From: Theionarchaea archaeon
Lineage (GTDB): Archaea > Methanobacteriota_B > Thermococci > Methanofastidiosales > SZ-28-30
Reading direction: 5' to 3'
Assembly: GCA_018992685.1 (NCBI GenBank)
Contig: JACVGT010000007.1
Coordinates: 1 to 64,000, forward strand
DNA: 64,000 bases
In this document: one piece after another, positions 20,695 through 59,386 of the stretch
Position numbering within the stretch: position 1 is the stretch's first letter
Layout of the letters: the number at the start of each line of letters is the position of its first letter
The notes under the pieces: model-generated
Seen by the model: the letters and a program-made list of their open reading frames with translations, nothing else
What the model was told of the DNA's origin: nothing
Databases searched by the model: none
Position numbers and translations under genes: made by a program

Positions 20695-21155
20695 GGTTTA
20701 CCCTGTAAAAGCTCATTTATAAGCTTTTCGCTCGCCATTTAGGGACTGATAAACGTTTATCGCAATTTTAGCTTATAATTTCGTTCTGATCCGTTACTGA
20801 AAGTTCCTGAACGTTTCTGAACGTTTATAGTGTCATGAAAAGCGACTAGTTACAGAATACATTCAGGGTACAAGGGTAAAGAAATCGTGAGTTCAGCCCC
20901 CCCGATTCTGGGATATGAAGTGACTTTCTCAGGACTATCGAATCACTTCTAACTGTTGCTAATCGTTTCTTTGCAGTCTGATATGATCAATGTCTTCTCT
21001 GAGGAGTCTATTTTACCATAATTGCCCTCTTGACACTTTTTTCCGTTTTCCTGGTGATACCAGAACTCTCACGGGTTCGTGTCAGAGTGACCAGAGAGGA
21101 ATCTAAGAATGACCATGAGAAATCTATTTATGTAATCTATCAACAAGAACATTTC

Positions 21156-22202: not shown

Positions 22203-22205
22203 CCA

Positions 22206-23396: not shown

Positions 23397-23400
23397 GTAG

Positions 23401-34290: not shown

Positions 34291-34306
34291 TCACGTGCTC
34301 TGCAGA

Positions 34307-36516: not shown

Positions 36517-36535
36517 CACATAAGGAGGTTTGTAA

Positions 36536-37081
36536 ATGAACATGATTGAGAGAAAAGTCAGGTACTTCCCGAATTATGGAGCACAGAATACAGATCAAGT
36601 CATTGAAATTGTAAAGAATCGAGCAACAGAGGGTGATGTGAGGACAGTCGTGGTTGCCAGCACTTCTGGAGAAACGGGTGTCAAATTTTTAAGAGAACTC
36701 GGAGACATTGCAGCTGTTGTCGTCGTCTCACACGAGAAAATGAATCCCACCCACAAACAGCGCATTACTGAACTGGGTGGTATCGCACTGGACACGACTC
36801 ATCTACCTCTGCACACGCCAGGAATGGATCCTATCAGAGAGGCGTTTCGAACTCTTGGCCAAGGATTTAAAGTCGCAGTCGAAGTTATTCTTATTGCTTC
36901 CGACAAAGGAGAAGTTGCCGTGTACGAAGACGTTATTGGGGTAGGCGGAACTGGCCGAGGGGAAGACACTGCAATACTTGCCAGAGCAACCCCCACCCAA
37001 GATGCATTTGGCAGTGATGAGACGAAGAAACTGGAAATCAGGGAAATCCTTGCCATGCCACTGAAGAAGAAATGGTGGTAG
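36536..37081 (+). CDS. hypothetical protein
   Basis: 181 aa. Strong SD AAGGAGGT 8 bp upstream. Located between AKR paralogs 2 and 3. Confidence 0.5.
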   Translation: MNMIERKVRYFPNYGAQNTDQVIEIVKNRATEGDVRTVVVASTSGETGVKFLRELGDIAAVVVVSHEKMNPTHKQRITELGGIALDTTHLPLHTPGMDPIREAFRTLGQGFKVAVEVILIASDKGEVAVYEDVIGVGGTGRGEDTAILARATPTQDAFGSDETKKLEIREILAMPLKKKWW

Positions 37082-37095
37082 GAGAGGGTGCTGCA

Positions 37096-42485: not shown

Positions 42486-45059
42486 ATGGAGATTCAGACG
42501 CAGGAACTCCTAAAGACACTTTCAAACAAGACCAACCTCGAGATCATAAACTTGTTGAGAAACGAACCATCCTATCCCCGGAAAATATCTGAGATACTGG
42601 GAATGCAGGAAGGCTATATCTCGAGAATTCTCTCAAATCTCGAAAAAATGGGTATTTTGCGCAGTCAGTGGGCATATCGAGAACGTAATGTCAAGCTGTA
42701 CTATGTTGACACAAAGGAGATCAGCATCGCCTTTGAACCTGAAGGCTTGAAGCTTCACGTGAAGACCAAAGGTGAGAAAGAGGTATCTGTGTCTTATGAT
42801 GCGTTCAAGTTTGAAATACCTGAACCGCATGGCTTCATCAATAGAAGAAAGGAGCTGCAGTTGATTGATACTCAACCCATGGTCGTCATTGAAGGATTGG
42901 CGGGTATTGGAAAGACCTTCCTGGCTGCAGAGTATGCTCAGAACGTACAGCCAAGGGGGAAGAAGATCTTCTGGCATTCATTCACCGATATTGACTCCTT
43001 TCACTATGTTATCAACAAATTATCTGTATTCCTGAATAATGTGGGCCTTTCCAATCTTCTGGAGTATATAAAACAGGAGGGTAGGGACAGCAGGGTACTG
43101 CTTTCCCTCTTCCAGCGGGGAATGACAGAGGACATGGTATTCTGTTTTGATGGGTTTCAGAAAGTGCAGGATTCTGAACTTGTCACCATGTTCAAACTGC
43201 TCAAAGACCCAGTTGCAAAAATTATTGTTACGTCCCGGGAACGTCCTTCCTTTGTTACAATATCCCGGAGTGATATTACAGAAATCAGGTTATCAGCTTT
43301 CACTGAAAAAGAAGCCAGAGAGCTCCTTCATTCCAGAGGTGTCATTCTGGGAGACAAAATGATGAAAAAGGCCCACAGAAAACTGGGAGGTCATCCTCTG
43401 ATTCTGGACATGTTCTGTGAAGCAGCAAAAGAGAAGCAGCCAAACCTCGTTTTGGAAAACCTTCCTGGCCACCAGGTGGAAGATTATCTGTGGAGCGAAA
43501 TCTTTCAGACCCTGTCAGAGGATGAACGGAAACTTGTGGAGTGCTTGTCCATGTTCAGAATACCTGCATCGGTCGATATCCTTAAGAAGGTGTACCAGGC
43601 TCCTGGGTTCTGGACCTGCCTGAAGGGACTGGAAAAACGCATGTTTATCAGGAGACAGAACGGCGGATACGTGCTCCCCTCTTCGATTGTGGAATTCACC
43701 TATCAGAGAGTCCCCGACAAGGAGGAACTGCATTCAGAAATCGCTGCCTTCTACAAATGCCAGGGCACTTCAGAGGGGCTCCTGGAATCTATGTATCATT
43801 TCCTGCAGGGTGAAAACCAGGATGAGGCTGCTCGTCTGGTAGCACAACCTCAAGATGTCGATTTGATAGAAAGGGGGTACCTGTCACCCTATCTGGACAT
43901 TCTGAATGGGTTCAGGAAATCCAAGATATCCCCGGAGCTGTGGTGCTGTATCATGTGTGCCAAAGGTAGAATTCTGTCGTTGTATGGAGATTCCAAGAGT
44001 GCACTCCGGGCATTTGAGGAGATGCAGAAAACTGCTCAGACCATCCAGTCTGACAAGTACGACGCCCGGGCTCTACATTGGATAGGAAACATCCATGCGT
44101 CAAAAGGAGACTGGAAGACAGCGCACATGTGTCTTGACACCAGCCTGTCCATACTGGAAAGACTCCAGGAGCATGAGGAAATGGTGGGTATCCATGCAGA
44201 CATTGGATTGCTCTTGATGAAAGAGGGAGTATTTGAGAAAGCACTTTCTCATTTTCGGGCAGGAAAGGACATTGCCGAAAAGAGTGGGTTCATGTACGGC
44301 CTTTCACAGATGCTGCGAGGCATAGCAAATGTGTACTACTACCAGGATCAGTTCGACACAGCTCTGGAATTTCACACGAAGAGTTTGACCCTGGCTGAAA
44401 AGGTGAGGGATGTGAGGGGCATTGCAGCAAACTACAACACGCTGGGATTGATTCACTTCTATAAGGGTGATCTTGAAAAGGCCATATCCTGCTTTAAGAG
44501 GACGCTTAATATATCAGAGAGGATTTCAGATATCAGAGATCAGATCATCTCGTGCGGAAACCTGGGGATGGTGTACGCAGAGGGAGGAGAGAGCGGCCTG
44601 GCACAGAACTATTATCAGAGAGCGTTGCATCTGGCAGAATCGCTGGAGGATCTATACTCCATTACCTATTTGAAAATGAAAATGGCAAGTCTTCTCCTGG
44701 AGAAAAAAGAATTGGAGAAAGCTCGCGCTCTCTGCGAGGTGTGCGAGAACATGTTTTCCTTGTTGGGCAAGAGCCTTCATTACGGGGAGTTCTGCAGGAT
44801 TTTTGCCATGGTATTGCAGCAGAGAGGGGAATGGGAAAAAGCGCAGGAACTCTACCTCAAAAGTATTGATGAGACCAGTGGATCACCTCTTGAACTGGGA
44901 AAGACCTATTTAGAGTTTGGACTTGGGATGAAGAGATATGGATCACTGGAAGAAGCTGAAGCGTGTTACGAGATGGCGCTTCAACTGTTTCAGCAAGTAT
45001 CAGCAGAAAGAGAAAGAGAAAAAGCACAGGAGAAGTGGGGAGCTGACAATCGGGGTTAA
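42486..45059 (+). CDS. STAND-type signal-transduction ATPase: N-terminal winged-helix HTH, NB-ARC/AAA-like NTPase (Walker A GLAGIGKT), C-terminal TPR array
   Basis: 857 aa. ArsR-like wHTH in the first ~90 aa. P-loop VVIEGLAGIGKTFLAAEYA. At least 8 TPR-like repeats at the C-terminus. TATA aacttatatagg about 30 bp upstream. Confidence 0.8.
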   Translation: MEIQTQELLKTLSNKTNLEIINLLRNEPSYPRKISEILGMQEGYISRILSNLEKMGILRSQWAYRERNVKLYYVDTKEISIAFEPEGLKLHVKTKGEKEVSVSYDAFKFEIPEPHGFINRRKELQLIDTQPMVVIEGLAGIGKTFLAAEYAQNVQPRGKKIFWHSFTDIDSFHYVINKLSVFLNNVGLSNLLEYIKQEGRDSRVLLSLFQRGMTEDMVFCFDGFQKVQDSELVTMFKLLKDPVAKIIVTSRERPSFVTISRSDITEIRLSAFTEKEARELLHSRGVILGDKMMKKAHRKLGGHPLILDMFCEAAKEKQPNLVLENLPGHQVEDYLWSEIFQTLSEDERKLVECLSMFRIPASVDILKKVYQAPGFWTCLKGLEKRMFIRRQNGGYVLPSSIVEFTYQRVPDKEELHSEIAAFYKCQGTSEGLLESMYHFLQGENQDEAARLVAQPQDVDLIERGYLSPYLDILNGFRKSKISPELWCCIMCAKGRILSLYGDSKSALRAFEEMQKTAQTIQSDKYDARALHWIGNIHASKGDWKTAHMCLDTSLSILERLQEHEEMVGIHADIGLLLMKEGVFEKALSHFRAGKDIAEKSGFMYGLSQMLRGIANVYYYQDQFDTALEFHTKSLTLAEKVRDVRGIAANYNTLGLIHFYKGDLEKAISCFKRTLNISERISDIRDQIISCGNLGMVYAEGGESGLAQNYYQRALHLAESLEDLYSITYLKMKMASLLLEKKELEKARALCEVCENMFSLLGKSLHYGEFCRIFAMVLQQRGEWEKAQELYLKSIDETSGSPLELGKTYLEFGLGMKRYGSLEEAEACYEMALQLFQQVSAEREREKAQEKWGADNRG

Positions 45060-46059: not shown

Positions 46060-46173
46060 GTGTAAGAAAGGTTCGACACTCATAAATAAGTTCCCATGGC
46101 GACACGGTACGCTAGTATGGCGAAAGTCCACAGATTTTTAAACAAGGTCTTCCAAAGGAAAGAGAGGGATTTC

Positions 46174-46842
46174 ATGAAAATGTCCAAGAAGGACCTGGCA
46201 AAAGTGATAGATCACACGCTGCTGGCTTCTACGGCAACGCAGGAACAGATTACAGTACTCTGTGAGGAGGGAAAAGAACACGGATTTGCTTCTGTGTGCG
46301 TCAACAGTTGCTGGGTGTCTCTGTGCAAGAGTCTTCTCGAGAATTGTGAGGTAAAGGTATGCAGCGTTGTGGGGTTCCCCCTGGGCGCCATGGCTACCCC
46401 GGCCAAAGCATATGAAGCAGAAAGAGCGGTAAAGGATGGAGCCGATGAAATCGACATGGTTATGAATGTTGGGAAATTTCTATCTGGGACTCCTGGGGAT
46501 CTGATCTATGTCAAGAGTGATATCAAGGCTGTGGTAGAGGCTGCTTCAGGAAACCCTGTGAAAGTTATTCTGGAAACTGGCCACCTATCAGATGAGCAGG
46601 TGGCGATGGCATGCAGGATCGCACAGGAAGCAGGAGCTCATTTTGTTAAAACGTCTACGGGATTTGGGCCTCCATTTGAGATGAAACATGTCACTTTGAT
46701 GAGGAAAGCGGTGGGCGATACCATGGGTGTGAAGGCAGCAGGGGGCATAAAAACATATGAGAAGGCAGTGGAAGTCATTCAGGCTGGAGCAAGCAGGATC
46801 GGAGCCAGCGCAGGAGTGGCTATTGTGAAGGCTGCTCTGTAG
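46174..46842 (+). CDS. deoC: deoxyribose-phosphate aldolase
   Basis: IDHTLL, FASVCVN, VVGFPLG. Schiff-base Lys context FVKTSTGF of class I DERA. SD-like GGAAAGAGAGGGA upstream. Confidence 0.85.
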   Translation: MKMSKKDLAKVIDHTLLASTATQEQITVLCEEGKEHGFASVCVNSCWVSLCKSLLENCEVKVCSVVGFPLGAMATPAKAYEAERAVKDGADEIDMVMNVGKFLSGTPGDLIYVKSDIKAVVEAASGNPVKVILETGHLSDEQVAMACRIAQEAGAHFVKTSTGFGPPFEMKHVTLMRKAVGDTMGVKAAGGIKTYEKAVEVIQAGASRIGASAGVAIVKAAL

Positions 46843-46851
46843 GGTGGAGTC

Positions 46852-48237
46852 ATGAGAGGGCTTTTTGGGACCTCTGGGGTGCGTGGGCATACAACCAGTG
46901 AAATCACCCCACAACTGGCCATGGACATTGGAGGTGCAGTGGGTGCACTGATTGGAAGAGGAAAGAAGGCGTGCACAGGAAGAGATACGCGTTTCGGCTC
47001 ACACATGCTGGAGCTGGCCGCACGTTCTGGATTGATGTCCCAGGGAATTGATGTCACAGAATGTGGTGTGGTTCCCACTCCCGTCCTAGCTCACATGGTG
47101 AGAGAAGAAGCCGATTGCGGTATCATGATAACAGGGTCGCACCTCCCCCCAGACATGGTGGGAATTATACCCTTGTTGGAAGATGGGGCATATCTGCCTG
47201 ATCAACAGGCCAGACTTGTGGAGGAGAGCATTTTACACCGGACATTTCATAAAACCAGAGTTGGAAATATGGGACTTGGTGGGCTGTATGAGGTGGCAGA
47301 TTCTCTTTCCCGGTATAAAGAGAGACTCCTTTCTATGGTTGATGAAGATTCTATTGCTAAGAATGGATTTAAAGTGGCTGTTGACCCTGTAAATGGCACT
47401 GCCTGTGCGTTCCTGGCTGACATTCTAGGTTCCCTTGGATGTGAGGTTTCTGAAATAAATGGAGAACCTTCTGGAATTCCAGGCCGATCTCCTGAGCCCC
47501 GAGCCTCTACGCTCACCGATCTCTGTGCACTGGTAAAGGAGAGTTCATTTGACCTCGGTGTTGGATTGGATACAGATGCAGACCGTGTGGTCTTTGTCGA
47601 TGAAAAGGGAACCCCTGTATCAGAGGATGTCATGGGAGTGATTTTTGCAGACCATGTCTTTCATGAACAGAAGGGGATTCTTGTGACCCCAGTCAATTCG
47701 TCAGGTATTGTGGAATGGTTTGCCAGAACCAGAGATGTGAAGGTGGAATACTGCAAAATCGGGCAGCCTGCTACTGTGGAGGCTATAAGAAAGACTGGTG
47801 CAGCTTACAGCTATGAGGAATCAGGTAAATACTACTTTGCTGAAGAAGTGAACTGGTGTGACGGACTGCTGGCCACCCTGAAACTCCTGGAGATCCTTTC
47901 TCTCAATGATTCTACACTATCTCAGCTGGTGAATAGATACCCCCGGTTTTACCAGGTCAAACAGACTGTTGACCTTCTTCCGGAGAAGAAAGATGCAATC
48001 ATGTCTCTTATCGAGAACCGTGTGCAGCAGGTTTTGGGAGACAACCAATCACGGATCGTAGAGATTGACGGTTACAAACTGGTTTACCCTGATGATTCTT
48101 GGCTACTCTTGAGAGGGTCTGGTACGGAGCCAGTGCTCAGGATTTACTCTGACTCTCCAAACAGGAAAAGAGCTGAAACCCTGGTGAAGAGAGGAATAAC
48201 CCTTGTTAATAAAATCATGAACTCAAAGCTCGTCTGA
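46852..48237 (+). CDS. phosphohexomutase (PMM/PGM) family protein, candidate archaeal phosphopentomutase
   Basis: Four-domain alpha-D-phosphohexomutase architecture with active-site Ser loop ITGSHLPP. Sits directly downstream of deoC. SD GGGTGGAG. Confidence 0.75.
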   Translation: MRGLFGTSGVRGHTTSEITPQLAMDIGGAVGALIGRGKKACTGRDTRFGSHMLELAARSGLMSQGIDVTECGVVPTPVLAHMVREEADCGIMITGSHLPPDMVGIIPLLEDGAYLPDQQARLVEESILHRTFHKTRVGNMGLGGLYEVADSLSRYKERLLSMVDEDSIAKNGFKVAVDPVNGTACAFLADILGSLGCEVSEINGEPSGIPGRSPEPRASTLTDLCALVKESSFDLGVGLDTDADRVVFVDEKGTPVSEDVMGVIFADHVFHEQKGILVTPVNSSGIVEWFARTRDVKVEYCKIGQPATVEAIRKTGAAYSYEESGKYYFAEEVNWCDGLLATLKLLEILSLNDSTLSQLVNRYPRFYQVKQTVDLLPEKKDAIMSLIENRVQQVLGDNQSRIVEIDGYKLVYPDDSWLLLRGSGTEPVLRIYSDSPNRKRAETLVKRGITLVNKIMNSKLV

Positions 48238-48904: not shown

Positions 48905-49825
48905 CTATTTCTTTCCCTTCTCGTAGTGTTTCCCAAGAGCTGCCGGTGGTACAGCTCTCTTCACTGCTCCAGCCAAGACCAGAATAGTCAGAACATAGGG
49001 AATCATCTGAATGAACTGATTGGCAGCCACTGTCCCCTGCAATTTCATTTGCAGAGCATCAGTAAAACTGAAGAGAAGACTTGCTCCAAAGGCTCCTGCA
49101 GGGTTCCATTTGCCAAAGATGTTCGCCGCCAGAGCGATGAATCCTCTCCCTGCAGACATGTTTTGGCTGAACAGGTTCAACCATCCCAGGGACAGGTAGG
49201 CACCCCCCAACCCCGATAGCATGCCGCTGGCTGTTACAGATAAATACTGAATCCGGTGCACGTTGATTCCCACGGTATCTGCAGCCTCTGGGTGCTCACC
49301 TACTGCCCTAATTCTCAATCCCAGAGGAGTCCTAAACATGATGACCCAGGCAGCAACAACAATCACAATCATGATGTATACCAGAGGGTTTTGCTGGTCA
49401 AAGATATCCTTGAGGTAGGGAATGTCTCTGATCAGTGGGATGGACAAGGGCTTCAATCCGGAAACAGGGTCTGACGCTCCCCTATTTCCCCAGATGATCT
49501 GGAGCAACAGCGTGGTAAGCCCAAGAGAAAGAATATTCACTCCCACTCCACTGACGACCTGATTTGCTTTGAACTGGATACATAGTACCGCATGCAGCAA
49601 TCCAAAGGCCCCGCCTGCCAGGACTGCGCACAGCACACCGATCCAGGGATTTCCCAGAAAATGTGTGCCCACTACACCAGCAAAAGCACCCATCAGGATC
49701 ATGCCTTCCAGTCCGATATTAATGATACCACTGCGTTCTGAGTACGCGCCCCCGATGGAGGCCAGGGCAATAGGGGGAGATATCCTTAAGGTTGCACCCA
49801 GCAGTATGGCAATACTAGAAAGCAT
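48905..49825 (-). CDS. ABC transporter permease (BMP-family nucleoside uptake system, permease 2)
   Basis: Polytopic membrane protein. Start MLSSIAILLG at 49825 preceded by AGGAGGG. Confidence 0.8.
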   Translation of the reverse strand: MLSSIAILLGATLRISPPIALASIGGAYSERSGIINIGLEGMILMGAFAGVVGTHFLGNPWIGVLCAVLAGGAFGLLHAVLCIQFKANQVVSGVGVNILSLGLTTLLLQIIWGNRGASDPVSGLKPLSIPLIRDIPYLKDIFDQQNPLVYIMIVIVVAAWVIMFRTPLGLRIRAVGEHPEAADTVGINVHRIQYLSVTASGMLSGLGGAYLSLGWLNLFSQNMSAGRGFIALAANIFGKWNPAGAFGASLLFSFTDALQMKLQGTVAANQFIQMIPYVLTILVLAGAVKRAVPPAALGKHYEKGKK

Positions 49826-50894
49826 TGGCAATCCCTCCTTTCCTGATTTTCTTGAAGATTCTGAACATTTCAGGAGCTGCCACAAACAGTATCACGATAC
49901 CCTGGATCACCACCACCAGATCTGTGGGGACATTGGTCATCTGTTTCATGACCATCCCTCCGTTCCGCAGAGCACCAAACAGCAAAGCACCCAGTACTAC
50001 TCCCACAGGATGGTTTCTCCCCAGAACAGCAACAGCGATCCCGTCAAATCCGTACCCCGGGGAGAATCCGAAAATAAACCGTTTGTGCAGTCCCAGTACC
50101 TCGCCTGATCCACCCAGTCCTGCCAGCATTCCTGATATGAACATCGATATGATAATGCTTTTCTGGACACTTATCCCCCCGTATTCTGCAGCTGTGGGGT
50201 TGAGTCCTACTGCTCTGATTTCGTATCCCAGGGTAGTCCTATACAGAATATAGTACGTGACACCGACGCAAATGAGAGCCACGATTATGGCTGCTGATAA
50301 CTGGGTGGAGGGTACCAACCGTGGAAGCTGGGCTGATGGTGTAACAACATCAGTCTGAGCAATCCATCCTTCAGCCTTCAAAGGATAGTTGGCCAGATAG
50401 TTGCACAGGAGCACACCGATGTAATTCATCATAATGGTGGTAATCACTTCATGGGCACCCACCCTGGCTTTCAACACACTGGGCACCAGAGACCATGCAC
50501 CACCTGCAAGGGCCCCGGCTCCCAGGGCCAAAGGAATGTGAAAGAACCAGGGAAGCCAGGCAAAGTTGATCCCTACCACGGCAGCAGTAATGGCCCCAAC
50601 GTACAGTTGTCCCTCACCACCAATGTTGAATAACCCACATCGAAAGGCGAAGGCCACGGTCAGCCCTGTAAAGATGAGGGGTGTTGCCCTTGTGAGGGTC
50701 TGGGCAAAATCATACGTACTGCCGAATGCACCTTCGTACAGTGCCTTGTATGCCTCAAGAGGCGATGAGCCTGCAAGATATACAATCACTGCTCCCACCA
50801 AAAGGGCAGCAATAACAGCAATGATTGAGATAAAAATGTCCATCAGACTTTCTTTTTGAATAACCTGAGTTATTTTTATTAATCGTGGATTCAT
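49815..50894 (-). CDS. ABC transporter permease (BMP-family system, permease 1)
   Basis: 359-aa polytopic membrane protein. Start overlaps the ATPase stop by ATGA. Confidence 0.8.
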   Translation of the reverse strand: MNPRLIKITQVIQKESLMDIFISIIAVIAALLVGAVIVYLAGSSPLEAYKALYEGAFGSTYDFAQTLTRATPLIFTGLTVAFAFRCGLFNIGGEGQLYVGAITAAVVGINFAWLPWFFHIPLALGAGALAGGAWSLVPSVLKARVGAHEVITTIMMNYIGVLLCNYLANYPLKAEGWIAQTDVVTPSAQLPRLVPSTQLSAAIIVALICVGVTYYILYRTTLGYEIRAVGLNPTAAEYGGISVQKSIIISMFISGMLAGLGGSGEVLGLHKRFIFGFSPGYGFDGIAVAVLGRNHPVGVVLGALLFGALRNGGMVMKQMTNVPTDLVVVIQGIVILFVAAPEMFRIFKKIRKGGIANAF

Positions 50895-52420
50895 GCGTGT
50901 CCACCTGCCATCAATAATCCCAGTTCTTCTTCAGTGGTCTTCTGAGGATCTCGCTCTCCCACAATTTTCCCTTCGTAGATGACAGCGATCCTGTCAGAGA
51001 GACAGCGAACCTCATCTAAATCTGCAGAAATGAGAAGTATGGCCTTGTCCTTTTTCCTCATGCTGAGAAGGGTTTCATGGATGAACTCGATTGCGCCCAC
51101 GTCGAGACCTCTGGTAGGCTGTGAAGCGATAATAATCTCGGGCTCTCTTCCCAGTTCTCTGGCCACAATCACTTTCTGCTGGTTTCCACCTGACAGATAT
51201 TTGACCTCACTGTGTACCCCAGTTCCTCTAATGTCAAAGGTCTCCACCAGCTCGGACGCATATGAATCCACCTTATCATATTCCATTCTGAACCCGCGGG
51301 AAAAAGGAGCCTTAAAGTGGGATCCCAGTATCAGATTCTCGGATAGAGAGAAATCCTGGATGAGCCCTCTCTTCTGGCGATCTTCAGGGATGTGGGATAC
51401 TCCTGCGTTGATGAAGTCCCTCGGGGAGGAATGTGTTAGATCTTCCCCGTTTACAAGAATCTTCCCCCCGCTTGGGCTTCGCAGTCCCGTTGCCGTTTCT
51501 GCCAGTTCCAACTGGCCATTGCCTTCAACTCCCGCAATGCCAAGAATCTCACCTTTCCGCAGTTCCAATGTTATCCCCTGTAGGGCTTTCACTCCTCTCT
51601 CATTGTATGCTTCCAGGTTCTGCATCTGCATCACAGCCCCCTTTGGGGGGTGAGGAGGTTTTTCCACTACCAGGCAGACTTCTCTGCCCACCATCATTCT
51701 TGCCAGACTGGCAACATCTGTTTCCCCGGTGTGAACTGTTCCCACCAGTTGTCCTTTTCTCAGCACGGTGATGCGGTCACAGGTCGCCATGGGTTCCTTC
51801 AGTTTGTGGGTGATGAAAATGATAGTCTTTCCTTCTTCTTTTAACGATTTCATAACTTTGAACAGTTCTTCCCCTTCTTGTGGGGTCAAGACTGCTGTTG
51901 GTTCATCCAGAATGAGAATTTCAGCTCCCCGGTACAATGCTTTCAGAATCTCTACTCGCTGTTCAATGCCTACTGATATATCCTGGATCTTGGCTCTGGG
52001 GTCTACAGCAAGACCATACCGTTTTGAGATTTCTTCAACATCTCGTGCTGCCTTTTCTCTGTCCATGAGGAAATGAGTCTCCGGCTCAACACCCAGGACA
52101 ACGTTCTCAGCCACAGTGAAGGGAGGCACTAACATGAAGTGCTGGTGGATCATGCCAATACCCAGTGAGATCGCATCATTGGGATTTGTTATCGCAGTGG
52201 GCTTACCATTAACAGAAATTTCACCAGAATCAGGCTGGTATAGCCCATACAAGACGTTCATTAACGTGGTCTTTCCCGCACCGTTTTCTCCAAGAAGAGC
52301 ATGAATTTCTCCTTTTCTAACTGAAAAAGTAATATCGTCATTCGCCAGAACACCAGGGAAGCGCTTGGTTATGTGTTGCATCTCCACAGCATTGATGGGT
52401 TCTGCATTCATTGCCATCAT
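50891..52420 (-). CDS. ABC transporter ATP-binding protein with duplicated NBDs (sugar/nucleoside importer type)
   Basis: Two Walker A motifs (GENGAGKTT, GVEGNGQLE-type) and two LSGG signatures in about 510 aa. The ORF is open from GTG 52489; I chose ATG 52420. Confidence 0.85.
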   Translation of the reverse strand: MMAMNAEPINAVEMQHITKRFPGVLANDDITFSVRKGEIHALLGENGAGKTTLMNVLYGLYQPDSGEISVNGKPTAITNPNDAISLGIGMIHQHFMLVPPFTVAENVVLGVEPETHFLMDREKAARDVEEISKRYGLAVDPRAKIQDISVGIEQRVEILKALYRGAEILILDEPTAVLTPQEGEELFKVMKSLKEEGKTIIFITHKLKEPMATCDRITVLRKGQLVGTVHTGETDVASLARMMVGREVCLVVEKPPHPPKGAVMQMQNLEAYNERGVKALQGITLELRKGEILGIAGVEGNGQLELAETATGLRSPSGGKILVNGEDLTHSSPRDFINAGVSHIPEDRQKRGLIQDFSLSENLILGSHFKAPFSRGFRMEYDKVDSYASELVETFDIRGTGVHSEVKYLSGGNQQKVIVARELGREPEIIIASQPTRGLDVGAIEFIHETLLSMRKKDKAILLISADLDEVRCLSDRIAVIYEGKIVGERDPQKTTEEELGLLMAGGHA

Positions 52421-52534
52421 AAGCGTATTTCCCTTAAAAAGGCTACCGGTTGCATCTCTGGTGGCAGTATTTGATGGGCGAATTCTCACGATAACAGCTT
52501 AGGCAGTTCCTGCAAAATCAGACACCTCGCCCCT

Positions 52535-54379
52535 CTACTTCCTCATGGCTGTCTTTCTTTCATGATTTTCGGTTCTAGCCTCTGCCCCTGGCACTCTTTT
52601 GTCTGCTCTCAGCACTGAGATGATGTTCTCGAGAGACTGGTCATAGTACAATACGCCCCTTTCTCTGAGAATCTCCAGTATGTGCAAAAGCTCTTTCTCC
52701 TCCAGATGGGAAAAGTGTTGCTGTACCTGGGTGAATGACGTTATGCTGTCACAGAAAACTAGAAGGTCGGTCTCGTCTCTGCTAAAGGTACAGGAAAGAG
52801 ACCTTGATCCTTTTTCCTTAAAGGCAGAACAATCGGGATATTCTGTCCACTGATAATCGCTTCCAGCCCGGGAATAAAACTGCAGAAGTCTTTGAAAGGT
52901 GTTCCACAAAAGGTAGTGGCGAATTCTCCCTGCAAAGAATCCAAAGAATTCAAATCGTTCCCCCTCTGGCAGCTGCAAGACAGATGCGATTTCTGCCCAC
53001 ATGGGGTCTTTGTTGTAGGCATCCCTTTCATGTTCTGACATCTCATTGTAATATGGTGATCCCTTGTACAGTGTGAAGTACTTGGGGACAATGGAATACT
53101 TCCTCAGGAAGAATCTCAGAAATCTCAAGTTCACACAACTCTCCAGGACGTCTTCCTCAGTTTCAGGTGGCGTCTCTGCTACAAAATTCCCTTTGATCTC
53201 GAGGTTGTGTTGATCCCCGAGCTTGAGAGCCTGTATATTGTGGGCAAAAGAGTGTCTCTTTTCCATTTTCTTCAAGAGAGCATCAGTCATTGCTTCAAAT
53301 CCGATCTGCACGATTTCAAAACAAACCTTTTTCATGGCACGTGCTGTATCGGGGTTGATGAAGATTGGAGATGCTTCTGCAAAAAGGCGGTAGGGACGTC
53401 CTCTTCTTTCAGAACTTTCCACAATCAGGGCAAGCAGATGGTGGAATCGCTTCTTGTTACCGGGGAGTTCAGTATCTACAAATACGAATGTGTCACCACC
53501 GTGTCTCTTGGACTGGAATTCCAGTTCTTCGACAATGTTCTCAGGAGATCGAGCCCGATATGAGAATTCCTCATTCAGAACGCAAAATTTGCACCTGTTC
53601 CAGGGGCAGGAGCGCGACCCCCAAATGGGGATGATGACCCGCATGTCTTCATGAATGTGGGTTTTCAGTGCCGCAAAATAGTCTGTGTGGTCTGCAAATG
53701 GGTATGAATCCAGATCACAGCTTTCAGAATGCTTGTTTGTTGAGATGATGGCGGCACCATCCCGGTACACCAGATGAGGGATCTCGGTGAACGTTCCCTC
53801 TCGTATCCCCTGAATCAGATGAACCAAAGGGTATTCTCCCTCCCCCCATACAGCGTAGTCAGCCAGCTCAAATACCTTCATAAAGGCGTGAGCCTGTTCA
53901 TCATTGCGAATCCCTCCAATGACGATCTGTATTTCGGGGTTTAATTCTTTCAGTCGCCTCATTACATAAGAGCTCAGAAGCCACTGGTAGGTCTTTAGAG
54001 TAAATCCCGCCAGAGGTTCTTTGTAGAGGCCATTTTGGTATATGTAGTCATCGATTTTTGTTCGAAGTGTGTCTACAAAGGGAGGTATTTTCCCCTGATC
54101 AAAAAAGGGTGAAAAATACTGGTCGAGAACAGTCGTCTCGTGATGGGCACCTGAGAGATGTCTCACTGTATACAGAACGGGAGTATTAAGAGAGGACAAG
54201 GATGAAAACACAGGATAGTCCCCAATGTGATCCTGGAGTTCTGACAGCTCCTCAGCAAGTATTAGATTCCAGTAGATATTTGTCACAGAGATTCCCCTTG
54301 ATTGCAGGAACCCTTTCAGATATCCCAAAGCAGGATTGGGAATATCGTAACTGTAGGGGGGCAAACAGTTTAGTATCAT
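52535..54379 (-). CDS. B12-binding-domain radical SAM protein (class B), with atypical Cx4Cx2C cluster motif and ~150-aa C-terminal extension
   Basis: N-terminal Rossmann-like cobalamin-binding region (MILNCLPPYSYDIPNPALGYLKGFL). Radical SAM core with GSRSCPWNRCKFC. Start overlaps the upstream gene's stop by ATGA. Confidence 0.8.
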   Translation of the reverse strand: MILNCLPPYSYDIPNPALGYLKGFLQSRGISVTNIYWNLILAEELSELQDHIGDYPVFSSLSSLNTPVLYTVRHLSGAHHETTVLDQYFSPFFDQGKIPPFVDTLRTKIDDYIYQNGLYKEPLAGFTLKTYQWLLSSYVMRRLKELNPEIQIVIGGIRNDEQAHAFMKVFELADYAVWGEGEYPLVHLIQGIREGTFTEIPHLVYRDGAAIISTNKHSESCDLDSYPFADHTDYFAALKTHIHEDMRVIIPIWGSRSCPWNRCKFCVLNEEFSYRARSPENIVEELEFQSKRHGGDTFVFVDTELPGNKKRFHHLLALIVESSERRGRPYRLFAEASPIFINPDTARAMKKVCFEIVQIGFEAMTDALLKKMEKRHSFAHNIQALKLGDQHNLEIKGNFVAETPPETEEDVLESCVNLRFLRFFLRKYSIVPKYFTLYKGSPYYNEMSEHERDAYNKDPMWAEIASVLQLPEGERFEFFGFFAGRIRHYLLWNTFQRLLQFYSRAGSDYQWTEYPDCSAFKEKGSRSLSCTFSRDETDLLVFCDSITSFTQVQQHFSHLEEKELLHILEILRERGVLYYDQSLENIISVLRADKRVPGAEARTENHERKTAMRK

Positions 54380-55713
54380 TCATGGGCCTCCTTTTGCTTA
54401 CTGACATATGTTTTCACCTGTGGCAGCCCGAAAACCTGCCTGGTAAAATCCACGGTGAAACAGCCAGGAGCATCCAGTGTTCCTTTCTCTCTCAATGCAA
54501 TGGCAGGGCATCCCCCCATACACCGGGGAAGCATGACGCAGGCTTTACACTCAGTAATGGCCAGGGGGTTGCGGGCCATCCACGAGTAGTATGCAGGTGT
54601 TTTGTCCAGAGAACCACGAGAGTTCAGAGACCCCACAGCATGGCGGGTGTCTCCTACCAAAGACATGCACTTGTAGACACGGCCATCCACATTGATGATG
54701 TGAAACCAATCAGTAATACCAGCACACAAGGAAAAGTACACACCAATTCCAAAAGGGAGTGTGGTGAATCCTTTGTGAGCAGCCATTTCCATGACTTCAC
54801 TGAAGAGATCTGAAGTCCCCGGATATCCGTAAGAACTGTAGTAGTGGGTACAGTAATCCATGCGGGGAGTAACCGTCCCAAAGTAGGTATGGGCCTTCTC
54901 AAGGCCAGCTTCTCTCAACATTTCAAGAAAGGTAATGATATTGTCTTCCCATACGTTAATTCGCATAATCAGATTCATGCCATGATCTTCAACACATTGG
55001 GCACCCTCTACCACTGATTGCAGGCTGCTTGTCTCATCAGGGAAAACCCTCCTGGTGTGGTGGTAGTACTCAGGTGCATCAAAAGTGATATGAATATCTG
55101 CTACCGTGAACTGTGAGAGGTTGTCGAGTCCTTCAGGAGTAAGGAGAGTTCCATTGGTGAAGAGCTTGATGAGGAGAGAAATACCTGCTTCACTACATGC
55201 CTCTTGCAGGGTTTCAGTAAGAGAGGTTATGCACTCTTGATTCAAGAGTGGTTCTCCTCCGTAAAGACTCACAAAGAGCGTGTCAATGCCTCGTACGATC
55301 TGATTCTCAGCAAAGGTTACCCCTCTTTCTGCTACCTTCTTGCTCATATGCCCAGTGCAGGCAGAAGAATTCCTGTAGCAGTACCTACAGTTCAAGTTGC
55401 ATTCGTGCGTGACAATGAAGTTCAAGAATGCAACTCTCCCAAGAGGAGAGCCCCGATATCCTGTAGAGGGGAGGCACCACTTCTTCTGTTCCAAGGAAGC
55501 CTGTATCAAGTTCATCTCTTGACCGGTGTCCTCTATGAGAAGTCCCTGCTTTGATAGTGCTTCAATAATCTCAGGGGAGCCTTTTCCGGTCATGAGGACG
55601 TCATACATTTCAGAATCAATCACTGTGAGAGACCCGTTCAATGTATTGTATACAAGGAAATCCTCTCTAAATGGGATAATAAAGCAGTACTGTGATCTCT
55701 GCATAATAATCAA
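54376..55713 (-). CDS. radical SAM/SPASM-domain peptide-modifying enzyme (anSME-like), paralog 2
   Basis: ~95-aa N-terminal domain (FIIPFREDFLVYNTLNGSLTVID). CNLNCRYC (Cx3Cx2C). GGEPLL. C-terminal SPASM cysteines (CKACVMLPRCMGGCPA). ATGA overlap with the upstream gene. Confidence 0.85.
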   Translation of the reverse strand: MIIMQRSQYCFIIPFREDFLVYNTLNGSLTVIDSEMYDVLMTGKGSPEIIEALSKQGLLIEDTGQEMNLIQASLEQKKWCLPSTGYRGSPLGRVAFLNFIVTHECNLNCRYCYRNSSACTGHMSKKVAERGVTFAENQIVRGIDTLFVSLYGGEPLLNQECITSLTETLQEACSEAGISLLIKLFTNGTLLTPEGLDNLSQFTVADIHITFDAPEYYHHTRRVFPDETSSLQSVVEGAQCVEDHGMNLIMRINVWEDNIITFLEMLREAGLEKAHTYFGTVTPRMDYCTHYYSSYGYPGTSDLFSEVMEMAAHKGFTTLPFGIGVYFSLCAGITDWFHIINVDGRVYKCMSLVGDTRHAVGSLNSRGSLDKTPAYYSWMARNPLAITECKACVMLPRCMGGCPAIALREKGTLDAPGCFTVDFTRQVFGLPQVKTYVSKQKEAHE

Positions 55714-57053
55714 ACCCAGATGATCTTTCCCGCCTTGAACCGGTCAGGAAGCTTCTTTTCGAGGTACCAACGAAGCTGATGTTTCATTTCCTGGTACGGT
55801 GCATAGCATCCAACTGCGTGGAATGTCCCATGCTTTTCATATGCAACAGCAGCACATCCTCCCCCACATGAGGGTAGCATCTGGCACTCACGACATTCCG
55901 GTATCTGCAGGGGGTCTCTGCTCATCCAGTCGTAGTAGGTCCATGTATACTCTGGTATGGTACCGTCTTCTGAAATATGACCAATGGAATGGTTTTTCTG
56001 CCCCACGAAGGTGAGACACTTGTAAAGATCTGCATGAGGATCTATGATGAAGGTTCCTTCCCCTAGGAATCCACAAAAGACGTGAGCTGGCTTGTGGGTG
56101 CGAATGACAGCAGCCGCTTGACCTTTTTGATCCACAATATCTCTGAATTCAGCAAGTACCTCACGGGCTTCTTCCTCTTTAATGCACTTGGAGTAGTCCT
56201 TACATGCTTGAGTTGATGCCCCCACTGTACCACAGCGCACAGGGACATTCTTGAATCCCCTCTCCTGAAGCTCGTCCAGCAGCTCACCGATGAACGGTCT
56301 GCTTTCAGAATCCACGTTCACCCTAAAGCTCACTCCGACGTTTTGGTCCTGCAGAATGTGAGCTGATTGCATCATGTCATCAAAGGTACCTCCTCCACTC
56401 TTGTAGAATCGTTTGGTGTCGTGGATGCGTTTGGGACCATCCAGCGTGATCTGTACGTAGTCTGTGTGGTAGCGCTTCAACGTTTCAGCTATTTCAGGTG
56501 TGACCAGAGTACCATTTGTCACCATCATTGTCACGTATGAGATGCCGTGGTCTTCTGCCCAGGAAAAGCAGGAATCCATAATGTACTCAGAATCGTCGAA
56601 TCTGAGCAGTGGTTCACCACCATACAGCGACACAGAAAATTCCCGCGCGTGAGTGTCTTCCACGTATTTCTTTATGAATTTCACAGTTCTTTCCCTGGTG
56701 TCAGCATTCATTGTCCCGCGGAATAGCTCTCCTTTTCCTTCATAGCAGTATGGACATGCTAGATTGCAGGCATATGTCGTTATGAGCATGAAATGGGGAA
56801 AATCCACCGTGTATTTCCTGTATTCATATCCTACCTTGAATTTTCGAGATTCATCAAAATCATCTTCTATGATTACCTTGAGCGCTGCAAGAGATTTGAA
56901 CAAGTCAGAATCCAGAATGTCAATATTCCCGGCTTTCAAAGCTTCCTTCAGCTCTTCATCTATTCCTATTACTGCACCACTCATCATGTTGGCCAACAGG
57001 TATTCTCCAGGAGTCTCTGTGGGGATAACTATGTTGAAGTTTGACACTTTCAT
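55710..57053 (-). CDS. radical SAM/SPASM-domain peptide-modifying enzyme (anSME-like), paralog 1
   Basis: N-terminal RRE-like segment (NIVIPTETPGEYLLANMMSGAVIGID). CNLACPYC. GGEPLL. C-terminal CRECQMLPSCGGGCAA SPASM cysteines. ATG 57053 preceded by GAGGTGA; the ORF track begins at GTG 57062. Confidence 0.85.
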   Translation of the reverse strand: MKVSNFNIVIPTETPGEYLLANMMSGAVIGIDEELKEALKAGNIDILDSDLFKSLAALKVIIEDDFDESRKFKVGYEYRKYTVDFPHFMLITTYACNLACPYCYEGKGELFRGTMNADTRERTVKFIKKYVEDTHAREFSVSLYGGEPLLRFDDSEYIMDSCFSWAEDHGISYVTMMVTNGTLVTPEIAETLKRYHTDYVQITLDGPKRIHDTKRFYKSGGGTFDDMMQSAHILQDQNVGVSFRVNVDSESRPFIGELLDELQERGFKNVPVRCGTVGASTQACKDYSKCIKEEEAREVLAEFRDIVDQKGQAAAVIRTHKPAHVFCGFLGEGTFIIDPHADLYKCLTFVGQKNHSIGHISEDGTIPEYTWTYYDWMSRDPLQIPECRECQMLPSCGGGCAAVAYEKHGTFHAVGCYAPYQEMKHQLRWYLEKKLPDRFKAGKIIWV

Positions 57054-57062
57054 GAGGTTCAC

Positions 57063-57096
57063 CTCAGGAAAAAAGAAAGGCAGGTTGAACTGCCTT
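57063..57096 (-). terminator. hairpin (7-bp stem aaggcag/ctgcctt, 6-nt loop) followed by U6 tract, placed between the small Cys-rich ORF and the first rSAM gene
   Basis: Minus-strand reading: aaggcag ttcaac ctgcctt tcttttttcc directly after the TAA of the 35-codon ORF. Candidate partial terminator/attenuator. Confidence 0.45.
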
Positions 57097-57107
57097 TTGT
57101 TATAGAC

Positions 57108-57215
57108 TTACACATAGGGGTGGCAAATTCTGCAGCACCAGGAACCAGTTCCTTCCGTGATGCACAGAGGCTCCATGATTTGCTCTTCTGCTTCGATGAG
57201 GATAGTCATGTTCAT
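57108..57215 (-). CDS. 35-aa Cys-rich peptide, candidate precursor/substrate of the adjacent radical SAM enzymes (MNMTILIEAEEQIMEPLCITEGTGSWCCRICHPYV)
   Basis: Not in the supplied ORF track (shorter than 60 aa). ATG at 57215, TAA at 57108-57110. Acidic N-terminal half, C-terminal half with 4 Cys + Trp + His + Tyr. SD-like GGAAGTGG 6-13 nt upstream. Two TATA boxes upstream. Hairpin plus U-tract downstream. Same strand as, and 46 bp upstream of, the rSAM trio. Confidence 0.55.
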   Translation of the reverse strand: MNMTILIEAEEQIMEPLCITEGTGSWCCRICHPYV

Positions 57216-57224
57216 AGATTCCAC

Positions 57225-57268
57225 TTCCTATTGCTATATAAAGTTTCTCTTTATCTTTATATACTTTT
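57225..57268 (-). promoter_or_regulatory. archaeal TATA/BRE-like promoter elements for the small Cys-rich ORF
   Basis: Minus-strand gtatataaag (57255-57264) and ctttatatagc (57233-57243), about 45 and 23 bp upstream of ATG 57215. Confidence 0.4.
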
Positions 57269-57430
57269 CTATTCATATGAATTCTACTAATTTCGTCACT
57301 CTTATAGTAATCAAATAAGAGCAAATGCAGAAGCCAGTAGTCTTTAAAGACAATATCTCTTGATATTTTGGACTACTTTCGTCCATGTGAGGTTAAATGC
57401 AGAGATTCTCAACCGAAATGCCCCCTTTTC

Positions 57431-57449
57431 TCACTTTTGTAAAAAGTGA
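57431..57449. promoter_or_regulatory. perfect 8-bp-arm palindrome tcacttttGTAaaaagtga
   Basis: Arms 57431-57438 and 57442-57449 are exact reverse complements. Lies between the SBP terminator tract and the peptide promoter. Confidence 0.4.
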
Positions 57450-57530
57450 TAATGTTCGGTAGAAGAGCTCTCCCTCACAGATTTTGCAGAATCTGGTAAT
57501 TGCACCTGCGATCATGAGCTGGCCCGAGAA

Positions 57531-57560
57531 CAAAAAAGTAAAAAGTAAAAAGAAGAAGTA
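57531..57560 (-). terminator. oligo-T terminator tract after the SBP gene (ttcttcttttttactttttactttttt)
   Basis: Immediately 3' of the TAA at 57561-57563. Archaeal termination typically occurs at oligo-T runs. Confidence 0.4.
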
Positions 57561-58601
57561 TTAATCCCAGGTGTATTCACCGGCCTCGTCAATACCAGTG
57601 GGAACCTTGATTTCGCCAGATGCGATCTGCTCCCTGTAGTCTTCAATGATGTCTCGTATGTCATTAGGCACGTGCTCGCAAGCACCAACACCATTCTCTT
57701 TTGCGCCAAAGCTCTGTATGCCGCCTGCAAAAGTCCCGTCGATTACCTGCCGTATGGTCTCGTATACAGCTACATCCACACGCTTTATCATACTGCATAA
57801 GAAGGTCGTTACCGGTACTCCCTCAATGGTGTCGCACTGATCCGCATCTACGCCAATGACCAATCCACCACGTTCAAAAGCCGCCTGGATAGCTCCCAAG
57901 CCAGATCTTCCGGCAGCAGCGAACACGATGTCTGCCTCTCCGTCATACTGAGCAAGGGCAAGCTCCTTTCCTTTTGCAGGGTCTACCCAGTCGCCCACAT
58001 ACTTCCAGGTGACCTCAACATCTGGATTGACGTACTCGGCTCCAAACTTGTAGCCAGCCAGGAATTTTCGAATCAAGGGTATGTCCATTCCACCTACAAA
58101 TCCAATCATATCAGTTTCAGTTTTCAGACCAGCAGCTGCTCCTACCAGGAAACTACCTTCGTTTTCCCTGAATACAAGAGAAGCCACATTAGGTTTGTCT
58201 ACCACCATGTCCACGATCGCAAACTTCTGGTCGGGGTATTCATCTGCAACAACAGTGATGGCATCTGCCTGATCAAATCCTATACCTATTATCAGTGCAT
58301 ATTCCCCGGACTTGGCGTACTGCCTGTGGAATCCTTCGTACTCAGCGATGGCTGTAGGTTCAACATAGTCAAATTCAATGCCGAAATCATCTCTAGCCTT
58401 CTTGATACCTACGTAACAACTATCATTGAAGCTCTTGTCTCCTAGTCCACCAGTGGCAAAGACAACAGCAATTTTCAATTCGGGGGGTGGGGGTGTAGAA
58501 GTTGGTGTCGGAGTTGTGGTTTCTTCCTCCTGTCCGATGCATCCCAATGTAAGGGAGCACAAAACTACCAGGGTGAACAGCATCTTAATACTTTTGTTCA
58601 T
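57561..58601 (-). CDS. BMP-family (PnrA/Med/TmpC-like) ABC transporter substrate-binding lipoprotein, nucleoside-binding type
   Basis: Start MNKSIKMLFTLVVLCSLTLGCIG (signal peptide plus lipobox-like Cys) preceded by GGAGGG 5 bp upstream and TTTAAA box about 45 bp upstream. Periplasmic binding fold typical of BMP proteins. The ORF track extension to 58757 is non-coding. Confidence 0.8.
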   Translation of the reverse strand: MNKSIKMLFTLVVLCSLTLGCIGQEEETTTPTPTSTPPPPELKIAVVFATGGLGDKSFNDSCYVGIKKARDDFGIEFDYVEPTAIAEYEGFHRQYAKSGEYALIIGIGFDQADAITVVADEYPDQKFAIVDMVVDKPNVASLVFRENEGSFLVGAAAGLKTETDMIGFVGGMDIPLIRKFLAGYKFGAEYVNPDVEVTWKYVGDWVDPAKGKELALAQYDGEADIVFAAAGRSGLGAIQAAFERGGLVIGVDADQCDTIEGVPVTTFLCSMIKRVDVAVYETIRQVIDGTFAGGIQSFGAKENGVGACEHVPNDIRDIIEDYREQIASGEIKVPTGIDEAGEYTWD

Positions 58602-59386
58602 ATGATTCCCTCCACGCTCACAGAGCTTGAGTAGATTTAAATACGTTTCGATGAAGCACCGAGGGTTCACTTTGATGTTAGAAGGAGCGTATGCGAGTCG
58701 TTGCTTTTCCGAAATGATGGTCCATTTGCAGGCCAATGAAGTCCTCCTCAAGAGCAACTGGGATTCGCTTTTTCTTTCTTACCCTCTTCCAGCTTTTCCT
58801 TCTTGTTTACAGGGTTCCGGTACAGTCCTTGTGTGAGAATCCCCTTTCTCATTCTTGAAGAAGTTCCTTCATTCTTGAGACCCCTCGCCCAGCCTCAAGG
58901 AAGCGTTGCTCTTCAGAACCAAAAAAGCTTTAGGGTCAAGGACTGAAAGGGAGGTGAAAGATGTGAATCTGCCCGTTTCAGTAAAACCCTCAATTTCCCC
59001 GCTCTCTCGGTTCTGGGTTCAGAAGGAAGGAGTTTTCGTGACCAACGGCGCCCGTGATTTAAGGGACCCAGAAAGCTGTAGCTCCCACTGTTAAAGTTGA
59101 AATAATTAGAACTCTTTGCTGAAGTCCCATCGGCATTCAAAATGTTCTCGTTCTCACTACCTGTTCTGGTGGGTAGGACGCCCCGGCAGCCCTGTCCCAA
59201 AGCTTCTGCTCTCACGTACATTTTGATCTCCTGGTTCTTTCAACTTCCTTCCTCTGGAGACTGAGATGGAGGTTCAGTAGCGTGGATTCCTGCAGCCTGC
59301 ATCTCAGTCCATGTGTACAATCCTGTCTGAAAAACGGGATACACCTACGGAAGATTTATATAGGGTTTATATTAATTTTCTGTTGC

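Follow-up and report, generated by a model that had tools for sequence, protein, structure and literature searches.

Why do genes for peptide-modifying enzymes lie between the binding protein and the ATPase of a nucleoside-type importer? The question is raised by a locus in a 64,000-nt stretch of the genome of a Theionarchaea archaeon (GCA_018992685.1, contig JACVGT010000007.1, positions 1 to 64,000), in the following called the window. According to Pfam and NCBIfam matches its minus strand carries, in this order, the genes for a BMP-family binding protein, a small peptide, two radical S-adenosylmethionine (SAM) enzymes with SPASM domains, a B12-binding radical SAM protein, the ATPase of an ATP-binding cassette (ABC) transporter and two permeases, just as a preceding sequence-only reading had it. 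That reading regarded the radical SAM genes as a cassette embedded in a transporter operon and proposed either acquisition of the cassette or a functional link with the transporter. Here we compared the locus with fetched loci from other genomes (L001-L099; coordinates refer to the window unless a locus is named). The nearest relatives of every queried protein were labelled Theionarchaea or Methanofastidiosia. Very probably, a cassette of ~4.9-5.1 kb for a ribosomally produced, post-translationally modified peptide (RiPP) was inserted a single time, in the common ancestor of a Theionarchaea clade, into a spacer of ~215 bp between binding protein and ATPase.

Empty sites with the same flanks spoke for acquisition. 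When the window was aligned with L009 by blastn, only 58471-57534 and 52456-48907 matched; the unmatched part measured 5077 bp in the window and 142 bp in L009. In L009 and L010, whose binding protein is 79% identical, the Bmp gene is followed by a 214-bp spacer, the ATPase gene and two permease genes. The flanks are those of the window, i.e. PGM/PMM and DeoC genes on the opposite strand, AP_endonuc_2 and a gene for a protein with helix-turn-helix (HTH), STAND and tetratricopeptide repeat (TPR) regions. L098 and L099 (75%) have the Bmp gene, a spacer of 215 bp, the ATPase and two permeases, followed by PGM/PMM and DeoC. The order binding protein-ATPase-permease-permease, contiguous in L009 and L098, is thus broken in the window by the 5.1 kb cassette. 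How unusual is this? As a baseline a genome collection was scanned with a binding-protein alignment and broad peptide patterns, and 80 BMP loci from other genomes were among the matches listed. Within this set the ATPase gene followed at up to 300 bp in 52 loci, at 300-700 bp in 6 and at more than 700 bp in 5; the rest of these listed matches were orphan binding proteins (9) or were cut by contig ends (8). The gap was therefore 700 bp or less in 58 of the 63 listed loci with a downstream ATPase, and a homologue of the three radical SAM genes was present in none of the 80 (0/80 among the matches listed). The remark that a peptide-maturation module is unusual at this place was well founded. One close orthologue of the binding protein was among the matches listed; this locus (L014) ends at a contig edge.

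Sharing of the arrangement by related genomes had been named as the mark of an ancestral system. It is indeed shared inside the window's clade, i.e. by L006 (Logan SRR11241199), L095 (GCA_019008925.1) and L096 (GCA_018992855.1), the latter two being Theionarchaea metagenome-assembled genomes (MAGs) at NCBI. It is found only there and not in the next-closest lineages, which argues for a shared derived insertion. In these three loci gene order was identical and colinear, with a single alignment across 58717-49827 at ~84% nucleotide identity. Between the window and L095 the cassette genes had synonymous divergences (dS) of 0.54-0.85 and ratios of nonsynonymous to synonymous divergence (dN/dS) of 0.05-0.15; for the transporter and flanking genes dS was 0.72-1.28 and dN/dS 0.05-0.10 (binding protein, 0.054). 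Because of these values for cassette and flanks, the sequences indicate one insertion in the clade ancestor and vertical co-divergence thereafter, with cassette and transporter under purifying selection and kept functional.

The cassette in turn has relatives at unrelated sites without the transporter, i.e. in L001/L094, L005, L007 and L097. In L001 and L094, where maturase 1 is 73% identical, a precursor and two maturases without the B12 gene (L001:1368-4205 and L094:3460-6297) lie between a Pyr_redox/Fer2_4 gene and DsbD_2. The same thiol-redox/ArsP neighbourhood lacks a cassette in L012 (9829-12629), which makes this a second site where the RiPP family is polymorphic in presence and absence. 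L005 (8263-16035) and L007 (14-9327) contain two precursor copies, three paralogous SPASM maturases, YcaO and a B12-radical SAM protein, and the window cassette looks like a reduced version of such clusters. A lone maturase was found in L002-L004. The cassette of L097 (6611-10295) was 81% (57436-55685) and 77% (54499-52592) identical in nucleotides to that of the window. Its context is unrelated and rich in small open reading frames (ORFs), with a MazE antitoxin, DUF5678, GYD and YcaO nearby, and its maturase 2 is deleted, leaving a 52-aa remnant ORF. Because this cassette is nearer to that of the window than the housekeeping genes of the empty-site lineage are, a recent relocation or transfer is suggested. 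A reciprocal empty site was sought; the flanks of L097 matched nothing in the window or in the other loci. The proposed check for deviating base composition or codon usage was uninformative about insertion. The cassette had a GC content of 0.46-0.47 and a GC content at third codon positions of 0.50-0.51 (background 0.474 +/- 0.018 and 0.502 +/- 0.030), and its codon-usage distance of 0.023-0.027 fell within the background of 0.019-0.060. Since composition is native and such cassettes are common in related archaea, the donor was probably a closely related archaeon.

Next we looked at the spacer itself. An own promoter and an oligo-T terminator had been proposed for the binding-protein gene, and both proposals were strengthened, as a TATA-like box, a Shine-Dalgarno (SD) sequence and T5-T6 runs are conserved in relatives. 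Box and SD are present in L095, L009 and L098; in L011 the aligned stretch reached only the SD and the ATG. The T-rich tract behind the gene is conserved in L006, L095 and L009, and this is where homology to the empty site of L009 stops. At the other end of the spacer the start of the ATPase gene had to be revised. The listed ORF runs up to a GTG at 52489, and the NCBIfam alignment begins only at ORF residue 34. ATGAATGC (MNA...) is the start of every one of the orthologues in L009, L011, L095 and L098 and corresponds to the ATG at 52411 in the window. The gap of 45 bp between B12 gene and ATPase reported earlier rests on the GTG; from the conserved ATG it is 123 bp behind the B12 stop (52535). 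The element CTTTTTAA is invariant in the window, L095, L009, L098 and L011 and stands at a fixed distance from ATGAATGC; it is followed by GGG in the first four but not in L011. The TATA-like box of the ATPase is located ~25 nt 5' of the conserved ATG in lineages with and without the insert. In general archaeal promoter geometry such a spacing suits a TATA box that drives a leaderless or near-leaderless mRNA. Read in this manner, the box would imply that the ATPase gene has a promoter of its own, and an independent promoter in the gap to the B12 gene is what the sequence-only reading had named as speaking against its view.

A single operon would be free of internal promoters and terminators. 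Here the candidates are several, i.e. the T-rich tract, the boxes in front of the precursor and ATPase genes and a hairpin with T-run behind the precursor gene. This suggests that the locus comprises three transcription units and never was a single operon. Of the description as a cassette embedded inside an operon, the position between binding protein and ATPase stands, but by sequence footprinting the importer genes on either side would form two separate transcription units. The spacer would thus have been divided between two units, by the T-rich terminator and the TATA-like box of the ATPase, before the cassette arrived. The insertion may have been tolerated because it fell between terminator and promoter-like box, leaving the transporter undisrupted.

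Table 1. Features of the locus, listed from the binding-protein end of the minus strand; promoter and terminator assignments are predictions.
Feature	Position	Strand	Basis or remark
Binding-protein TATA-like box TATTTAAAT	58635-58643	minus	sequence inference
Binding-protein SD GGAGGG	58608-58613	minus	sequence
BMP/PnrA-family substrate-binding lipoprotein, 346 aa	57561-58601	minus	PF02608, E 4.5e-68; lipobox LTLGC, Thr/Pro linker
T-rich tract (T5, T5, T6), likely archaeal terminator	57527-57560	minus	directly 3' of binding-protein stop
Inserted segment relative to empty-site relatives, 5077 bp	52457-57533	minus	blastn against L009
Cassette TATA-like box TATATAAAG	57255-57263	minus	sequence; ~45 nt 5' of precursor ATG
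Cassette SD GGAAGTGG	57221-57228	minus	sequence
Precursor peptide gene, 35 aa, MNMTILIEAEEQIMEPLCITEGTGSWCCRICHPYV	57108-57215	minus	conserved motif EPLCxxEGxGxWCC
Hairpin AAAGGCAG-TTCAAC-CTGCCTTT and T-run, likely attenuator/terminator	57067-57097	minus	terminator-like match
Radical SAM/SPASM peptide maturase 1, 447 aa	55710-57053	minus	CefB NF038107, 383 bits
Radical SAM/SPASM peptide maturase 2, 442 aa from ATG 55704	54376-55704	minus	CefB 219 bits; TIGR04085 45 bits
B12-binding radical SAM protein, 614 aa, putative peptide C-methyltransferase	52535-54379	minus	PF04055 and PF02310; TIGR03975 nearest
ATPase TATA-like box TTTTTAAGGG	52431-52440	minus	conserved across lineages with and without insert
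ABC ATPase with twin nucleotide-binding domains (NBD), 506 aa from ATG 52411	50891-52411	minus	two ABC_tran stretches
Permease 1, BPD_transp_2	49815-50894	minus	Pfam; start ATGA-coupled to ATPase stop
Permease 2, BPD_transp_2	48905-49825	minus	Pfam; start ATG 49825 with SD; 11-nt overlap with permease 1
PGM/PMM-family mutase	46852-48237	plus	convergent with transporter
DeoC-family aldolase	46096-46842	plus	convergent with transporter

Several points weigh against a simple insertion into a neutral spacer. The cassette shares its strand with the transporter genes, and an oligo-T run of five or more is absent between the B12 stop and the TATA-like box of the ATPase; on both grounds read-through from the cassette is possible and could add to transporter expression. 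Promoters and terminators are read from conservation only. The arrangement has stayed intact over a dS of ~0.7, and no protease or exporter belonging to the cassette was seen within the window. As the nearest empty-site relative has ~74% nucleotide identity, the junctions are placed within ~50 bp. Finally, a search in and around 52457-57533 for an integrase, a transposase, a target-site duplication or a conserved terminal repeat yielded none. A candidate for a terminal repeat was a 16-nt imperfect inverted pair (52504-52519/57480-57495, 14 of 16 positions complementary) ~40 nt inside the ends. Neither arm is conserved in L095 and the pair is probably due to chance.

With recombinase, terminal repeats and target-site duplication lacking, the insert does not qualify as a mobile element. 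It resembles accessory cassettes or genomic islets in permissive intergenic sites in its presence/absence polymorphism with conserved flanks and in that L011 carries a second insert. It differs from them in that no integrase, transposase, tRNA target, direct repeat or compositional deviation was found. L011, a Methanofastidiosia relative with a 79% identical binding protein, has a different insert in the same gap (L011:11084-15021), on the opposite strand, which carries genes for a 747-aa S8 subtilase and a 364-aa protein of metallo-beta-lactamase fold. Because of this second, different insert the gap appears to be permissive for insertions and to have been used twice independently.

What does the cassette make? 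For the region between binding protein and first enzyme the ORF list had a single entry, 57100-57324, without a family match. The sequence-only reading was right that a small gene follows the binding protein; the ORF was wrong, and the precursor is encoded in another frame by the 35 codons from 57215 to 57108. An ORF of 30-40 aa with the motif EPLCxxEGxGxWCC adjoins the orthologous enzymes in the window, L006, L095-L097, L001/L094, L005, L007 and L008, and the motif was conserved 5' of the radical SAM genes in 10 fetched loci representing at least five distinct contexts. In L006, L095 and L096 the precursor is that of the window except for R29K. It reads MNMTVLIEAEEQIMEPLCITEGPGSWCCRICHPYV in L097, MKLKVLIRANEQVFEPLCITEGTGSWCCKICSPYF in L001 and L094, ...EPLCPAEGRGAWCCYV in L005 and ...EPLCILEGRGAWCC(I/V)YWW in L007 and L008, which have two copies each. 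Its dN/dS between window and L095 was 0.05. Pfam and NCBIfam had no model for this precursor family, and a metagenome scan with the back-translated motif returned one locus, L094, of the same lineage as L001. The literature on Theionarchaea or Methanofastidiosa RiPP clusters yielded nothing specific. A TATA-like box ~45 nt upstream and an SD accompany the precursors with a short start (MNM/MKL) in L006, L095-L097, L001/L094, L005 and L007 (3428); the first precursor copy in L007 and L008, called from an upstream ATG, lacks this TATA spacing. A hairpin with T-run between precursor and first enzyme recurs in L097, L001 and L007 with different stems; examples from other lineages than the window's are GGCAG/CTGCC, TGCAGCC/GGCTGCA and ACAGCC/GGCTGT. 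The hairpins were compared one sequence at a time, RNAalifold alignments being mis-registered between lineages. A hairpin behind the precursor gene is the usual RiPP design, by which more precursor than enzyme is made; that at 57067-57097 is likely to be an attenuator or terminator. At the junction, 5' of the cassette promoter, we also noted a 40-codon ORF on the minus strand (57393-57515) with 'FCKICEGE', which resembles 'CCRICHPYV' of the precursor. The region is poorly conserved in L095, and the ORF could be fortuitous or the remnant of a second precursor.

Both SPASM maturases have the PF04055 domain, an N-terminal extension, a CxxxCxxC motif (CNLACPYC at residue 96 of maturase 1, CNLNCRYC at residue 105 of maturase 2) and a CxxCx5Cx3C motif (CRECQMLPSCGGGC at 387 and CKACVMLPRCMGGC at 389, respectively). 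In maturase 2 the SPASM model TIGR04085 scored above its cutoff of 27 bits. The two enzymes aligned end to end with the CefB, TIGR04463, Clo7bot, geopeptide and PapB families, all below the equivalog cutoffs; for CefB the scores in Table 1 compare with a cutoff of 600 bits. The nearest solved structure for maturase 1 was PDB 5WGG (E 1.5e-22), which we take to be CteB, the thermocellin maturase. Maturase 2 and the B12 gene also overlap as ATGA. The B12 enzyme has the expected architecture of B12-binding and radical SAM domains, with PF04055 at 54.7 bits and, by itself below threshold, PF02310 at 25.1 bits (gathering score 32.1). Its alignment with TIGR03975 ('RiPP maturation radical SAM C-methyltransferase') spans residues 6-577 at 163 bits, the cutoff being 282. 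Residues 258-266 read CPWNRCKFC (Cx4Cx2C) in place of the expected CxxxCxxC, which is absent across the whole protein, and the sole PDB match was weak (9CCB, E 1.8e-6). The protein is 100% identical to P0241, an NCBI Theionarchaea MAG protein encoded on a 106-kb contig, and has many Theionarchaea homologues at ~50% identity.

How does this compare with known clusters? The short Cys-rich precursor directly 5' of full-length enzymes, the hairpin 3' of the precursor gene, and the N-terminal extension, CxxxCxxC and CxxCx5Cx3C auxiliary-cluster motifs of the enzymes are shared with the radical SAM/SPASM clusters of sactipeptides and ranthipeptides (CefB NF038107, TIGR04463, Clo7bot TIGR04334, PapB NF047865). 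Differences are the sub-cutoff scores, the archaeal host, the two paralogous maturases together with a B12-radical SAM protein, and YcaO in relatives, and the motif EPLCxxEGxGxWCC, whose cysteines at positions 18, 27, 28 and 31 of the precursor do not follow a 'Cys-every-fifth' pattern; the chemistry is a prediction. The B12 enzyme shares with the TIGR03975 rSAM_ocin_1 C-methyltransferases the two domains, the full-length alignment and the position in a RiPP cluster, and differs in score, cysteine motif and the weak structural match. By family resemblance the product is likely a thioether-cross-linked, C-methylated peptide from the core LCITEGTGSWCCRICHPYV. Extrapolating from family membership, the precursor would be made in excess, with hairpin and T-run attenuating read-through to the enzyme genes; both SPASM enzymes would recognise a short leader by their N-terminal parts and install thioether-type, i.e. 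sacti- or ranthipeptide-like, cross-links from three to four core cysteines, and the B12 enzyme would methylate an unactivated carbon. The cassette thus belongs to a known kind of system, whereas its precursor family is one without a Pfam or NCBIfam model. Going further would be speculative. The EPLCxxEGxGxWCC peptides may conceivably be an undescribed archaeal RiPP family whose self-promoted cassette relocates between sites in Theionarchaea and Methanofastidiosia without a recognisable recombinase, and whose cross-links, e.g. at the invariant Trp/Cys-Cys or Glu, could differ from sacti- or ranthipeptide chemistry; we hold this to be rather unlikely as a whole. A weaker addition is that read-through in this clade could couple peptide production to nucleoside uptake.

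The importer itself has a complete set of parts, i.e. a Bmp-family protein, a twin-NBD ATPase and two BPD_transp_2 permeases. The reported ATGA coupling of ATPase and permease 1 was borne out by the overlap of stop and start. So was the overlap of the permeases, which is 11 nt from the ATG at 49825 and the same in L009; preceded by an SD, this ATG is most likely the start of permease 2. The binding protein matched PnrA (PDB 2FQW, E 2.7e-44) as well as further BMP lipoproteins that bind nucleosides, its best NCBIfam match being a weak 'putative B6' (64 bits, cutoff 400). In PnrA the ligand residues include a DKSFN segment, the stacking Phe186 and the base-contacting Asp27 (PMC7093131). In our alignment DKSFN is retained and Trp205 is opposite Phe186; at the position of Asp27 we find Ala49, the residue offset being our own mapping. 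Three lineages (L009/L010, L095/L096, L098/L099) have the transporter paired with PGM/PMM and DeoC, and in the window both genes are convergent with the transporter as described before. In Thermococcus kodakarensis the BMP-type importer NupDABC (TK0657-0660), with contiguous gene order, supports nucleoside-dependent growth (PMC12628685). Because of the likeness to PnrA, the conserved PGM/PMM-DeoC pairing and the NupDABC precedent, the ligand is likely a ribose-containing compound, and it was reasonable to read the flanks as nucleoside uptake and catabolism. Compared with the importers of Treponema pallidum (PnrA), Borrelia burgdorferi (BmpD) and T. kodakarensis (NupDABC), lipoprotein, ATPase, permeases, DKSFN, the aromatic residue and the neighbouring PGM/PMM and DeoC genes agree. 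The 5.1 kb of unrelated genes that separate the binding-protein and ATPase genes, Ala49 and the weak NCBIfam match do not. Presumably the transporter remains an importer of a ribose-containing ligand that feeds PGM/PMM and DeoC, and the cassette would not need it. Another gene, at 42486-45059 on the plus strand, is conserved next to the transporter/DeoC/PGM block in L009 and L095. Its 857-aa product has an ArsR-type HTH at the N terminus together with a STAND/NB-ARC NTPase and TPR repeats and possibly regulates the locus.

Could cassette and transporter nevertheless be functionally coupled? The transporter may have been recruited, e.g. for import of the mature peptide as a signal, the two may be tied by read-through, or the radical SAM enzymes may act on a nucleoside-derived molecule. 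The common strand, the 123 bp from B12 gene to ATPase without a strong oligo-T terminator between them, the retention of the arrangement in four clade assemblies under purifying selection and the lack of a dedicated exporter or protease nearby would fit. However, orthologues of the cassette occur in at least five other contexts without a BMP transporter, and those of the transporter occur without the cassette (L009/L010, L098/L099). Because each is found without the other, the functional link offered by the sequence-only reading is unsupported. Further, a peptide is favoured as the substrate by the conserved precursor with its own promoter and by the full-length matches of both SPASM enzymes to peptide maturases. 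The ATPase retains its ancestral promoter-like element, the transporter genes do not evolve faster (dN/dS ~0.05), and transporters with a BMP-type binding protein are established as importers (PMC12628685). We therefore consider coupling improbable.

Still less probable is that the cassette was original to the cluster and was precisely lost in the lineages of L009/L010, L098/L099 and L011. Four assemblies share the arrangement, yet all of them belong to one clade with ~84% nucleotide identity, and the closest relative of the cassette outside the clade, in L097, is elsewhere. In bacteria and archaea binding protein and ATPase are as a rule adjacent, as in the BMP loci among the matches listed and in T. 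kodakarensis TK0657-0660 (PMC12628685). The cassette would need to have been deleted cleanly and independently at least two or three times, with a spacer of ~215 bp and an intact terminator and promoter left behind on every occasion. A chimeric contig that fuses a radical SAM and a transporter cluster, conceivable as the source is a MAG, is hardly credible, because both junctions are repeated in independent assemblies from different samples (L006, L095, L096; colinear at ~84%), the identical P0241 exists and composition is uniform.

Two regions farther away in the window appear to be ordinary chromosomal context without further RiPP genes. At 21030-24189 (plus strand) a BcrAD/BadFG-type activator ATPase and two HGD-D subunits make up a 2-hydroxyacyl-CoA dehydratase set, and 34277-38310 encodes three aldo/keto reductases, of which two have ferredoxin-type 4Fe-4S domains.

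The single insertion at this locus looks like ordinary genome plasticity and not like a new transporter-linked pathway. It illustrates a trap in genome scanning. Biosynthetic genes 'inside' a transporter cluster seemed to be a functional association, but synteny points to a neutral insertion between transcription units. In addition, a permissive insertion spot is documented that appears to have been used twice independently in archaea of the Methanofastidiosia group. To our knowledge few modified peptides from uncultured archaea have been characterised. The locus provides a clean definition of precursor and enzymes for a radical SAM RiPP family of such organisms, and the precursor motif and the cassette boundaries are directly usable for genome mining or heterologous expression.

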